Positions 27,332 through 44,137 of a stretch of DNA of 44,479 nucleotides are shown here, one piece after another. The notes below the pieces were generated by a model. It had not been told where the DNA came from. It made no database searches and saw nothing but the letters and a program-made list of their open reading frames with translations. Each line of letters opens with the position of its first letter. Positions within the stretch are counted from its first letter, which is position 1. Source of the stretch: a virus (taxonomy: Duplodnaviria > Heunggongvirae > Uroviricota > Caudoviricetes); the IMG/VR virus record IMGVR_UViG_2526164662_000049; one strand, given 5' to 3'. The translations under genes were made by a program, and so were the position numbers.

Positions 27332-27490
27332 AATGACGCCCTCTGGTGGTTTCTTAATAACTCACCACCGACGACGCCAATCGTCTGGTGGTGAACTGTG
27401 CAGGGTTGGCGTAACCGGGAAACCGACCGGCGCGGATCTCTCCGCCCCCACACAGCCCACCATAATTCAGATGTGCGCGTGCATACGACA

Positions 27491-27514
27491 ATAAAAAACA
27501 CGCTCGCGGCGTGT
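27491..27514 (-). terminator. tR'-like terminator downstream of late promoter
   Basis: minus-strand hairpin acacgc-cgcga-gcgtgt followed by TTTTTTATTG. Confidence 0.45.
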
Positions 27515-27575
27515 ATCTGTCGCGGTCTCTATCCAGGACGCCAATCCCGACGCCAGATTTTGCTGGCGCGTGAGG

Positions 27576-27605
27576 AATATAGCCCCGGATAACAGATTGA
27601 GTCAA
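27576..27605 (-). promoter_or_regulatory. late promoter pR'-like (TTGACT-N18-TATATT) immediately after Q
   Basis: sigma70-like elements read on minus strand directly downstream of Q stop, as in lambdoid phages. Confidence 0.45.
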
Positions 27606-29365: not shown

Positions 29366-29601
29366 ATAGAGACAAAAATATTAATCTGAAAAATATTTAT
29401 TTCACGCCATATATTTGATTATTTAATGTGCAGGTACAATGACTTTTATTTTGTGTTGTGTATATAATCAAATATATGGTTATTTTTCACCCTGCGTATT
29501 CAGCGCGCAACAAAAAACCCGCCGAAACGGGTTAAGCGCGGGTGCGTTGAGGATGCCTGACTCATCAGAGGTGGCGAGGGATTTCTCCCCCGCCTGGTCT
29601 C

Positions 29602-29757
29602 TTACTCCTCAGGTTCGTAAGCTGTGAAGACAGCGACCTCCGTCTGGCCGGTTCGGATTCGTACCTCGCAGAGGTCTTTCCTCGTTACCAGTGCCGTCAC
29701 TATGACGGTTAAACAGATGACGATCAGGGCGATTAACATCGCCTTTTGCTGCTTCAT
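29602..29757 (-). CDS. hokD: Hok-family type I toxin (HokD/RelF-like)
   Basis: 51 aa MKQQKAMLIALIVICLTVIVTALVTRKDLCEVRIRTGQTEVAVFTAYEPEE; terminator hairpin downstream at 29513-29535. Confidence 0.8.
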   Translation of the reverse strand: MKQQKAMLIALIVICLTVIVTALVTRKDLCEVRIRTGQTEVAVFTAYEPEE

Positions 29758-30003
29758 AGCCTGCTTCTCCTTGCCTTTCGGCACGTAAGAGGCTAACCTA
29801 CATTTGTGAGACATAGATTGGGCCTCAGATTAATGTTAAGCGTCTTGCAGGACGCGTAATGTTAACTGGGGCTTTTCTCTATCTGCCTTTTGGTGTTCAT
29901 GCCTGAGACAGATAGCCTCAAGCACCCGCAGCAATTCTACTTAACTCTCCTTTTCCCGCAAACCGTTTTTACCCGATATGGGAATTCCCATATCGTAATG
30001 AAT

Positions 30004-30108
30004 TCAGTTCCCTAGTCGATCCATCAAAAACACAACCAGGCAGTAAACGCCCACAACAGCAACAACAGCCAGCGCACCTTCCATTGCCAGTGATATATCA
30101 TCCGACAT
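30004..30108 (-). CDS. small hydrophobic peptide (34 aa)
   Basis: ATG with strong AGGAGGG RBS; MSDDISLAMEGALAVVAVVGVYCLVVFLMDRLGN; not in ORF track (shorter than 60 aa). Confidence 0.25.
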   Translation of the reverse strand: MSDDISLAMEGALAVVAVVGVYCLVVFLMDRLGN

Positions 30109-30143
30109 ATTCCCTCCTTTGGTGTTAATCCCGGCGAACGTTT

Positions 30144-30227
30144 TTACCCCCACCGACAAATAACATATACTAAAAAAGCGATAGCCATAGCAACGCCTGT
30201 AATTGCAAATGCTTCAGGCCAGTTCAT
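30144..30227 (-). CDS. small hydrophobic peptide (27 aa), ATGA-coupled to upstream gene
   Basis: MNWPEAFAITGVAMAIAFLVYVICRWG; start overlaps stop of DUF551 gene. Confidence 0.25.
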   Translation of the reverse strand: MNWPEAFAITGVAMAIAFLVYVICRWG

Positions 30228-31093
30228 TGGCGCACCTCCTGCGGCGGTTCTGGTAGCGGCATCCAGTGTGACGGTTTCCACGACGCACCAGGAATTATCC
30301 ACCCATCATTAGCGTCAGGATGACCCGGGATGTAAGTCGCCCATTTCATTCGCCAGTCACCTTTCCTGTCAAACTCCACGGCAACAAGAACGGCTGTTTT
30401 GGTATCCGGCATTCGCTCACTACAGCTTATCCAACTATCCGGAGTTACCGGATAGTTGCCCGATAGTGCATTCTGCTCCAGTGATGCTTTTACAAACCAC
30501 GCTGCCTGAACTATAACGCCATGAATCCAGCGCAAATCAGCATCGCGATCTTTCTTTTTCATCTTTTCGCCACTTAAGGCCTTGCTTATGTGGCTGCGTA
30601 CCAGGTCTTCATGTAATTCCTTCGCCTCCTCAATGGTGAAACCACCAGGCAGAAGAGCCGGAGTTACCGGAGAGCTGGTTGACGCTTCCGGGATTTTCCG
30701 AAAATTATTGGTTGACGAATCTTTATTTTCCCGAAAGTTTCCGGACTGAAGCATGGCTTCGCGGCAATCGTTCCAGCCTGTAGCGTATGCAGCCGCTTTG
30801 CTGCTGCCTTCAACTGGCGCATCCTGCCAATACATTTCTTCCGGCACTATCGGCGCTGGAGGGGCGGCAAATAGATATCCGCCAAAGTCAGGAAGCTCTC
30901 TAATGGCCTGTACAAATTTTTGTTTGCCTACGTCAACCCCTAATGGGTAATGAGCTATAATCTTTGCCACCGGCTCTGCTTCCAGCGATGCCAGCGCAAT
31001 CCGTGCCAGTTCCATTTGTTCACCACGGGTAAGCCCGTTTTCAAGCGGATTTTTAATGAACAATTCAATACGTTCTTTGGTAATAGTGGTCAT
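30224..31093 (-). CDS. phage protein with C-terminal DUF551-like domain
   Basis: 289 aa; C-terminal region with W/P-rich ending typical of DUF551 nin-region proteins. Confidence 0.55.
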   Translation of the reverse strand: MTTITKERIELFIKNPLENGLTRGEQMELARIALASLEAEPVAKIIAHYPLGVDVGKQKFVQAIRELPDFGGYLFAAPPAPIVPEEMYWQDAPVEGSSKAAAYATGWNDCREAMLQSGNFRENKDSSTNNFRKIPEASTSSPVTPALLPGGFTIEEAKELHEDLVRSHISKALSGEKMKKKDRDADLRWIHGVIVQAAWFVKASLEQNALSGNYPVTPDSWISCSERMPDTKTAVLVAVEFDRKGDWRMKWATYIPGHPDANDGWIIPGASWKPSHWMPLPEPPQEVRQ

Positions 31094-36433: not shown

Positions 36434-36829
36434 ACCATTTATTGGATTAATTCAATATTCTTGCTGTAGGGGTATAGCCGAGGCCACCAAAGCCCGGAGG
36501 TGGTGAAATAAAACCGGGCACAACACGAAGGCGCATTTCCGGTATCCATAAAGAGTCGGTCTTGTCTGTTAAATTTAAATGGTGGGAGTGCGCCTCCGGT
36601 TGTAAATAACGACATTGCTATGTGTAGTCTTTGGCGGCATCAGTTCTACTCCGTGGCTGCCCTGCCGCCCCTTTTTAAAGTGAATTTTGTGATGCGGTGA
36701 ATGCGGCTAAGCGCACGCGGCACAGTTAAAAGCATCAGTGTTATGGGTGGATTATCCGGCGTTAATTGTTAACTGGTTAACGTCACCTGGAGGCACCAGG
36801 CACCGCATCGACAAAATTCATTTGTAAAA

Positions 36830-41939: not shown

Positions 41940-42134
41940 ATGCGGTATGAAAAAGTCAAACCATGTCCGTTTTGTGGTTGTCCATCAGTAACGGTGAAAG
42001 CCATTTCAGGATATTACCGCGCAAAGTGTAACGGATGCGAATCCCGAACTGGCTATAGTGGAAGTGAAAAAGAAGCACTCGAAAGATGGAATAAACGAAC
42101 TACTGGAAATAATAATGGAGGTGTTCATGTATAA
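41940..42134 (+). CDS. ralR: Lar/RalR restriction-alleviation protein (type I toxin RalR-like)
   Basis: 64 aa MRYEKVKPCPFCGCPSVTVKAISGYYRAKCNGCESRTGY... Cys4 motif; matches recalled Rac RalR. Confidence 0.7.
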   Translation: MRYEKVKPCPFCGCPSVTVKAISGYYRAKCNGCESRTGYSGSEKEALERWNKRTTGNNNGGVHV

Positions 42135-42315
42135 AATTACTGCCACTATTGAAAAGGAAGGTGGCACTCCTACTAACTGGACAAGGTACTCAAAAACAAA
42201 ATTAACCAAATCAGAATGCGAAAAAATGCTCTCAGGGAAAAAAGAAGCAGGCGTTTCCAGAGAGCAGAAAGTAAAGCTGATAAATTTTAATTGCGAGAAG
42301 CTTCTGTCCTCGTGA
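42127..42315 (+). CDS. ydaC: YdaC-like protein (DUF1187-like)
   Basis: 62 aa MYKITATIEKEGGTPTNWTRY...; start overlaps ralR stop; Rac-like order. Confidence 0.5.
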   Translation: MYKITATIEKEGGTPTNWTRYSKTKLTKSECEKMLSGKKEAGVSREQKVKLINFNCEKLLSS

Positions 42316-43865: not shown

Positions 43866-43900
43866 TAAATACAATTAAAAAAAGACCGAATACGATTCCT
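43866..43900. repeat. attR core region (sdsR 3' terminus reconstituted at prophage junction)
   Basis: aaaaaaagaccgaatacgattcctgtattcggtcc; direct repeat of 1067-1098; partial third copy at 43793-43815. Confidence 0.5.
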
Positions 43901-43979
43901 GTATTCGGTCCAGGGAAATGGCTCTTGGGAGAGAGCCGTGCGCTAAAAGTTGGCATTAATGCAGGCTTAGTTGCCTTGC
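43877..43979 (-). ncRNA. sdsR: SdsR (RyeB) small RNA
   Basis: minus-strand sequence GCAAGGCAACUAAGCCUGCAUUAAUGCC... ending in terminator hairpin plus U-run; matches recalled E. coli SdsR. Confidence 0.8.
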
Positions 43980-44137
43980 CCTTTAAGAATAGATGACGAC
44001 GCCAGGTTTTCCAGTTTGCGTGCAAAATGGTCAATAAAAAGCGTGGTGGTCATCAGCTGAAATGTTAAAAACCGCCCGTTCTGGTGAAAGAACTGAGGCG
44101 GTTTTTTTATTGGAAATCAAAAGGCTATTTTAGGTAA

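Follow-up and report, generated by a model that had tools for sequence, protein, structure and literature searches.

Three described loci stand closest to the region considered here. The hok/sok (parB) system of plasmid R1, whose mechanism is summarised in PMC8621323, combines a mok-coupled hok gene, a convergent Sok RNA with a single-stranded 5' tail and closure of the mRNA through its 5' and 3' ends. The hokW-mokW-sokW locus of the Stx2 phage 933W and the Sakai prophage Sp5 (AF125520) has been shown experimentally to be a functional type I toxin-antitoxin (TA) system (Takada et al. 2021, PMC8621323); HokW, 44% identical to Hok of R1, is induced in a RecA-dependent manner, and the hokW-sokW locus doubles phage release (PMC8621323). 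The third locus is hokD (relF) of the cryptic prophage Qin of Escherichia coli K-12, which forms part of a relBE-hokD operon. The enrichment of hok genes in prophages has been documented (bioRxiv 10.1101/2025.08.07.668861). We compare these loci with the hok region of IMG/VR virus record IMGVR_UViG_2526164662_000049, a tailed-phage (Caudoviricetes) sequence of 44,479 nucleotides (nt), hereafter the window, in which hok is preceded by two very short genes for hydrophobic peptides of 27 and 34 amino acids (aa).

We consider it quite probable that this part of the window is a mosaic early-right stretch carrying three separate units: a complete hok/mok/sok cassette, a 27-aa gene coupled to a DUF551 gene, and a 34-aa gene held in a repeat-bounded cassette of its own.

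A complete hok/mok/sok cassette

The type I TA cassette occupies about 29516–29961 on the minus strand, is complete, and belongs to the hokW/hokD subfamily. Its parts, in window coordinates, are the following.

29602–29757, minus strand: hok toxin gene, 51 aa, product identical to HokD (RelF) of K-12 (PF01848 HOK_GEF, E=1.2e-23 over residues 6–47; phrog_251, E=2.8e-33)
29602–29814, minus strand: mok frame, 70 aa, in the frame of hok and overlapping it, with its start 57 nt upstream of hok (from the list of open reading frames, ORFs)
29934–29961, minus strand: predicted hok/mok promoter, TTGCGG (29956–29961), 16 nt, TAGAAT (29934–29939), with a predicted +1 near 29927 (read from the sequence)
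29516–29927, minus strand: predicted full-length hok mRNA, minimum free energy (MFE) −165.2 kcal/mol, z=−6.9
29516–29533, minus strand: intrinsic terminator hairpin of the hok mRNA (terminator scan)
29771–29880, plus strand: sok antitoxin gene, promoter TTGCCT (29771–29776), 17 nt, TAACCT (29794–29799)

The first-pass annotation of this stretch had recognised the HokD-type gene and its downstream terminator, had noted that relBE is absent, and had left it to be checked whether the mok and sok elements survive. The toxin gene and the terminator are where it placed them. A tblastn search of the whole window with RelB and RelE of K-12 returned no homologue (best E=0.23), and the relB-relE pair that lies immediately upstream of hokD in the Qin-type operon is not found here. 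The mok frame, the sok promoter, the Sok hairpin and the closing helix between tac and fbi are all intact, and the locus is not decayed.

The protein evidence is straightforward. The exact HokD sequence is present on about 1000 contigs, and the exact 70-aa mok sequence belongs to a 1137-member cluster that carries the name Hok family/HokC/D. The RNA features agree with it. The Rfam model RF01794 (named 'sok', although it covers the hok leader) matches 29752–29927 with 120 bits, the model starting at 29927, and the match carries an 18-nt stem extension, by which the Sok/leader hairpin exceeds the Rfam consensus in length. In the predicted fold of the hok mRNA, both MFE and centroid, the 5' tac element GGGUGCUUGAGG (29916–29927) pairs with the 3' fbi element CCUCAACGCACCC (29540–29552). 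The predicted Sok RNA, from about 29806 to 29877, begins with a 5' tail of 14 single-stranded nt, folds into a long hairpin and ends in a U-rich tail (−30.7 kcal/mol, z=−5.9). The −10 block of the hok promoter is almost invariant, with a diversity of 0.003 among 63 haplotypes.

By nucleotide sequence the nearest described relative is hokW-mokW-sokW of 933W and Sp5, 94% identical to the cassette over 442 nt (29530–29971). The two loci have in common the hok promoter, tac, fbi, the mok frame and the Sok hairpin, and the annotated sokW of 933W maps to window 29806–29876. The sok promoter segment is identical in the two, and it was by mutation of exactly this −10 (primer YO-421) that sokW was inactivated experimentally (PMC8621323). 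Hok of the window and HokW share 47 of 51 residues. They differ in setting and in detail: in 933W the cassette lies beside attR in the early-left/b region, whereas in the window it lies in the nin region; the 933W terminator is a different one; and 933W has neither the 175-base-pair (bp) module with the 34-aa gene nor the palindrome that the window carries upstream of the hok promoter (both described below). Between 933W and the window, 7 of 17 nt differ at mok codons 2–4, the counterpart of the 5' tail of Sok, and because this segment differs the Sok RNA of the window and sokW may not cross-react. With R1 hok/sok the window shares the architecture set out above; sequence identity is low, and R1 is a plasmid whereas the cassette of the window lies in a prophage.

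The cassette would work as its relatives do. By analogy with these systems, a stable full-length hok mRNA would be kept inert through the pairing of its 5' and 3' ends, and Sok RNA, made from the convergent promoter within the mok/hok leader, would pair with the mok initiation region. That pairing would block translation of mok, to which translation of hok would be coupled; when Sok falls, Hok would be made and would depolarise the inner membrane. That this Hok is toxic and that this Sok neutralises it is thus inferred from the activity of hokW-sokW, which is 94% identical, and from the identity of the protein to HokD.

Comparison with K-12 changes how the absence of relBE should be understood. 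The hokD gene of Qin encodes the same 51-aa Hok and is 98% identical in nucleotide sequence over 259 nt that take in hok, fbi and the terminator. Homology is limited to window 29513–29771 and reaches no more than 16 nt beyond the hok ATG on its upstream side; tac, the hok promoter, the start of mok and both the promoter and the target of sok are lacking in K-12, where relE-relB abut instead. The alignment indicates that relBE-hokD of Qin is a derived, 5'-truncated state and that the window holds the complete form. The first-pass annotation had described relBE as missing, with the DUF551 gene and the micro-ORFs in their place. That description does not hold: it is the Qin arrangement that is derived, and the arrangement of the window is a common one.

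Several observations concern the cassette itself. Among 63 distinct hok cassette haplotypes, diversity peaks at 29796–29825, reaching 0.31 at 29806–29815 as against less than 0.1 over most of the cassette. This peak coincides exactly with the unpaired 5' tail of Sok and with the target of Sok, the mok start on the minus strand, which suggests that the specificity of Sok has diversified between several hok copies sharing one genome. The codon for Tyr46 of hok (29619–29625, minus strand) lies in a TTACGAA context, the motif for A-to-I editing by TadA, and a recent preprint reports that editing at this motif recodes Tyr46 of hokD to Cys. Five sister copies of the cassette (L025, L039, L072, L256 and L258) are interrupted by an insertion of about 1.1 kb, or cut short near the hok start codon, and keep the leader and sok part; this decay has spared the copy in the window.

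Two conserved micro-genes upstream of hok

Between the DUF551 gene and the hok promoter the window holds the following features.

30224–31093, minus strand: DUF551 (EaA-like) gene, 289 aa (Pfam PF04448, E=9.8e-21; phrog_60, E=4e-60)
30144–30227, minus strand: 27-aa micro-gene MNWPEAFAITGVAMAIAFLVYVICRWG, its ATG overlapping the TGA stop of the DUF551 gene as ATGA (30224–30227)
30129–30149, no strand assigned: upstream copy of a 21-nt direct repeat (TCCCGGCGAACGTTTTTACCC on the plus strand), left boundary of the module, overlapping the stop of the 27-aa ORF
30113–30119, minus strand: Shine-Dalgarno sequence AAGGAGG of the 34-aa gene, four nt ahead of its ATG (read from the sequence)
30004–30108, minus strand: 34-aa micro-gene MSDDISLAMEGALAVVAVVGVYCLVVFLMDRLGN, a predicted single-pass small membrane protein (RefSeq hypothetical protein WP_001278454.1; XECs145 of O157:H7 Sakai)
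29974–29995, no strand assigned: perfect 22-bp palindrome CGATATGGGAATTCCCATATCG, 11-nt arms with 100% complementarity, between the 34-aa stop and the hok promoter
29954–29974, no strand assigned: downstream copy of the 21-nt repeat, right boundary of the module, containing the −35 region of the hok promoter

The DUF551 gene and the two hydrophobic ORFs lie on the minus strand at the positions first reported for them, one coupled through ATGA (the 27-aa ORF) and the other preceded by a strong ribosome-binding site (the 34-aa ORF, AAGGAGG). They are far from being chance ORFs, since both are conserved as coding sequence across diverged loci.

The 27-aa peptide is hydrophobic, with an M-x-WP[ED]A[FIL] motif followed by one transmembrane helix. 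A degenerate DNA pattern for M-x-WPEAFA retrieved 120 stretches from viral contigs, and 33 of the 40 distinct peptides encoded there are 20–36 aa long with a hydrophobic tail, compared with 3 of 114 in a control (Fisher p=2.5e-23) that consisted, among the matches listed, of bacterial genome contigs, mostly chance matches from unrelated phyla, and is no taxonomic census. Across the family all synonymous codons for the motif are in use, and in 40 of 44 sequences the second codon starts with A, which keeps the ATGA overlap. A second collection, of 79 evaluable loci gathered through the DUF551 protein and independent of the WPEAFA motif, contains an ATGA-coupled 27-aa ORF in 67–69 cases, motif variants such as MSWPDAIVTLGVVFAAAFVVFSICRWG included. 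The pairwise ratio of nonsynonymous to synonymous polymorphism (pN/pS) in the ORF is 0.30–0.59. Phage 933W/Sp5 has an unannotated homologue, MTWPEAFANVGTVMAVVLVVYSICRWR (locus L003, 2950–3033), of the same length, which is ATGA-coupled to a different gene (L0139) and abuts the hokW promoter; the forward primer YO-432 used to clone hokW-sokW begins at the start codon of this ORF, so that the construct included it (PMC8621323). These patterns argue that the 27-aa ORF is a real conserved gene, one of a widespread, unannotated family of phage micro-proteins usually coupled to DUF551. Because it is found both with and without hok downstream, it belongs with the upstream gene chain and not with the TA system.

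That the family has been overlooked is in keeping with its size, as an ORF of 84 nt escapes most gene callers. The exact 27-aa sequence is in a single database entry. No model in Pfam, PHROGs or NCBIfam matches the 27-aa or the 34-aa peptide, or ten diverged relatives, and full-text literature searches with the peptide strings of the micro-ORFs found nothing relevant. A scan of K-12 CPS-53 and part of Qin yielded no family member, and hence no link to the K-12 small proteome. A ribosome-profiling (Ribo-seq) study of O157:H7 Sakai applied a 30-aa cut-off, above the length of this ORF (PMC5597208). As a separate observation, a different hydrophobic ORF of 40 aa (MSKVNVLIFSAIVGFGFTAGVQIYITW... 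/ MNKCNALLYAMVIGFGLAAGIRVYITW...) recurs downstream of the 27-aa family or of DUF551 in loci L026, L096 and L291, and the stretch that follows DUF551 looks like a hotspot for genes encoding small membrane proteins.

The 34-aa gene is known from that same Ribo-seq study as XECs145, a 'novel small gene' of O157:H7 Sakai that was reported to be translated and predicted to encode an inner-membrane protein (Huecker et al. 2017, PMC5597208). XECs145 was given an alternative start further upstream there, and with it a length of 54 aa; its last 34 residues differ from the peptide of the window by V16I only, and the study assigned it neither a function nor a family and drew no link to hok (PMC5597208). 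In LB medium its values were 79 reads per kilobase per million (RPKM) for RNA and 346 RPKM for ribosome footprints, giving a ribosome coverage value (RCV) of 4.35 at a coverage of 0.99, compared with a mean RCV of 1.55 for short annotated genes in the same study (PMC5597208).

Selection on the 34-aa frame is evident from several comparisons. The exact protein sequence is found on about 1000 contigs. Thirteen DNA haplotypes show 12 synonymous as against 9 nonsynonymous changes in the frame, where the expected synonymous fraction is 0.28 (P=0.0045), and the excess of synonymous changes is absent from the other five frames of the region in these haplotypes. The ratio of nonsynonymous to synonymous substitution rates (dN/dS) is 0.10 against locus L326, 0.14 against L091 and 0.31 against the L055 subtype, within a full range of 0.10–0.41; control frames give about 1.0. 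Lineages in which the ATG has become GTG, or the TGA has become TAA, keep the start and the stop respectively. The AAGGAGG is invariant even in L326, a locus of 78.6% identity, and is mostly free of pairing in the predicted fold; only three variant alleles occur in the 41-nt 5' part of the module. Further subtypes are represented by L055 (MWEVIVLVLKCALAIVAVMAIYCLVIVLMDHLSD) and by L331/P0096 (VLAALKGFVAILAVVAIYCLVVVLMDRLSD). This conservation argues that the 34-aa ORF is a real gene for a small membrane protein, and neither a chance ORF nor a decayed remnant.

The gene sits in a 175-bp module, between the 27-aa gene and the hok promoter, that is bounded by the two imperfect repeat copies (81% identity, spacing 175). 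In 933W the corresponding position is an empty site, with a single repeat copy and no module. A second repeat, between the hok leader and the 5' region of the 34-aa gene (80% over 20 nt), was rejected as chance, as it is not colinear with the 21-nt direct repeat. The palindrome forms a hairpin in the predicted fold and could possibly act as an RNA hairpin or an insulator; L326 has a degenerate version of it, and the L055 and L331 subtypes have none. In PPompW phages (L330, LC567832.1, PPompW_EH1992, 1501–1539) only a 39-bp remnant, equivalent to window 29972–30010 and made up of the last two codons of the 34-aa gene and the palindrome, stands between the paa/adfO virulence gene and gef (mok/hok), as if a moron had replaced most of the module.

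Explanations for the micro-genes and their neighbourhood

The characterised small inner-membrane proteins AcrZ and MgtS of E. coli and the type I toxins Ibs, Ldr and TisB are shorter than 50 aa and have a single hydrophobic helix, and the 27-aa and 34-aa peptides resemble all of them in both respects. On the explanation that we prefer, of three separate units, the 27-aa gene would be the translationally coupled tail of the DUF551 gene chain, outside the hok system, and the 34-aa gene would be translated from its own strong ribosome-binding site. Both peptides would be non-lytic small inner-membrane proteins that bind and modulate a membrane partner, and not pore-forming toxins. One further step may be proposed for prophage induction, because hok is co-oriented with the early operon and translated ORFs reach up to its promoter: sense read-through of the early operon across the micro-genes into hok might interfere with the convergent sok promoter and so help to trigger Hok. 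Such read-through could also yield a 5'-extended hok RNA, and the interference would explain why Takada et al. saw sokW RNA lost in a RecA-dependent way (PMC8621323).

Some points weigh against this explanation. The Ribo-seq signal of XECs145 comes from a region present in several copies in Sakai, and the ORF call carries an N-terminal extension of 20 codons. A promoter scan of the minus strand found no convincing promoter for the 34-aa gene, and the hok and sok promoters are themselves sub-consensus and were missed by a stricter consensus scan. Translation of the 27-aa ORF is argued from its evolution, and both the membrane-partner role of the peptides and the transcriptional-interference step are proposals.

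Of the alternatives, the one that fares best would make the 34-aa protein a functional accessory of prophage hok/sok, either as a membrane partner that tempers or times Hok or through upstream expression that tunes the hok promoter. Its appeal lies in linkage. The hok leader directly follows the 34-aa gene in 57 of the 58 distinct contexts that have enough downstream sequence, and three diverged subtypes (50–60% aa identity) with three different left-hand contexts all lie immediately upstream of a hok promoter, with 40 nt separating the 34-aa stop from the +1 of hok in L331. E. coli prophages are the only place where the family has been seen: close relatives of E. coli type were all that word-based and exhaustive profile searches returned, and a tblastn search of deposited phage and plasmid collections found none, a result to which the low-complexity filter may have contributed and with which a DNA search agrees. 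Yet hokW-sokW acts as a TA system and affects phage release although 933W/Sp5 is without the module, and most hok loci do without it as well, hok-like matches being found in 4970 genomes as against 794 for the micro-ORF region. The linkage could equally reflect the shared descent of closely related prophages. We regard an accessory role as unlikely, and give the same low credence to the more specific proposal that the family is a hok/sok module protein which modulates Hok by membrane interaction or by coupling early-operon read-through to the loss of Sok.

Very unlikely is the idea, raised in the first-pass annotation, that one or both micro-ORFs are extra type I toxins, pore-forming peptides with an undetected antisense RNA, in a region that would then be a cluster of type I systems. 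Both peptides are indeed short and hydrophobic and stand beside a genuine type I locus, and a weak sigma-70-like match on the plus strand (TTGCCA, 16 nt, CATATT; 30084–30111) could drive an RNA antisense to the ribosome-binding site of the 34-aa gene. But that match scores only 9 of 12, and the density of such matches is near that of shuffled sequence (4 found, 1.6 expected); no Rfam antisense family covers 29996–30230. The 34-aa peptide has acidic termini (MSDD...DRLGN, net charge −3), whereas type I toxins are cationic. Its Shine-Dalgarno sequence is strong and not occluded, being unpaired in the centroid fold, and there is no structured leader of the kind that would hold it silent. In almost all contexts an ordinary gene precedes the 27-aa gene and is coupled to it through ATGA. 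Finally, the Sakai homologue of the 34-aa gene is highly translated (the RCV of 4.35 given above) in exponentially growing, uninduced cells (PMC5597208), that is, efficiently and in growing lysogens.

For the hok locus itself, we find it highly improbable that it is a decayed, non-functional remnant like the chromosomal copies of K-12. Those chromosomal loci are reported to be inactive (cited in bioRxiv 10.1101/2025.08.07.668861), and some related prophage copies have insertions or truncations (L025, L039 and L256, for example), but every hok/mok/sok element is present and unbroken in the window, its Hok is identical to the toxic HokD/RelF, and its closest relative is experimentally active (PMC8621323).

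That the 27-aa and 34-aa ORFs are halves of one 74-aa two-helix protein, either broken up by a frameshift mutation that left a pseudogene or connected through programmed −1 slippage at TGG GGG TAA, is almost certainly wrong: relative to the frame of the 27-aa ORF that of the 34-aa ORF is indeed −1, there is a G5 run ahead of the stop and rare database proteins join both ORFs (P0064, P0067, P0068 and P0069), but these fusions stem from three different +1 homopolymer insertions as against a split form on about 1000 contigs, L326 has the ORFs separate with a different spacer and no G-run, 933W has the 27-aa ORF only and L325 and L331 only the 34-aa family member beside hok, and the 34-aa gene retains its own invariant Shine-Dalgarno sequence. 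Programmed −1 frameshifting was also rejected as a candidate in its own right, since neither a slippery site nor a frame relationship is conserved (no G-run in L326; varied homopolymer insertions).

Prophage setting and meaning

The window is a Rac/Qin-like lambdoid prophage of E. coli, as judged by gene content and by Rfam matches, which are as follows.

42133–42311: RalA, the antitoxin RNA of RalR
36619–36670: DicF
27384–27582: isrK and the C4 antisense RNA with a1b1 targets
43873–44017: the SraC/RyeA-SdsR/RyeB pair, which marks the chromosomal flank of the prophage

Every gene from about 35.5 kb down to 26.7 kb is on the minus strand, and this block is the early-right (replication-nin) operon typical of Rac-like prophages. 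Its order begins with a cro-like helix-turn-helix gene, YdaT, a DnaC/IstB-like loader, DUF1627, DUF977, DUF551 (the last large gene of the coupled chain ahead of the micro-ORFs), the two micro-ORFs and hok, and continues with a phrog_1813 gene, DUF1367 (NinB-like), YbcO, a DUF1133/Q-like antiterminator and ORF6N. The same succession of DUF551, a hypothetical protein of 34 aa (WP_001278454.1) and hokD is annotated by RefSeq in many E. coli chromosomes, and among 5426 complete E. coli genomes 673 contain at least 80% of the 269-nt micro-ORF region. The AT-rich gap that separates the hok terminator from the gene after it contains a 19-nt inverted repeat (29407–29425 / 29461–29479, 95% complementary, 35-nt spacer), overlapped by two promoter-like matches on the plus strand.

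The hok/sok cassette is thus biology already known, and the absence of relBE from it is no anomaly; the micro-genes are modestly new members of a poorly charted class of phage small membrane proteins. The comparison nonetheless corrects a K-12-centred view, as the textbook hokD-relBE is the truncated form, and common E. coli prophages carry the intact ancestor in their nin region. Both micro-genes add to the under-annotated small-protein content of phages. The widespread 27-aa family is skipped by current annotation pipelines for its ORF of only 84 nt, and one of its members was unknowingly part of the construct with which hokW-sokW was characterised; the 34-aa gene, reported as translated in Sakai, is nearly always a neighbour of hok. 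Should the two peptides modulate neither membrane integrity nor Hok, they would be routine phage accessory genes. If either of them does, the reading of prophage hok in lysis timing and phage release would change; and if it is the 34-aa protein that modulates Hok, a system of two RNAs and one peptide would become a three-part timer of prophage induction.

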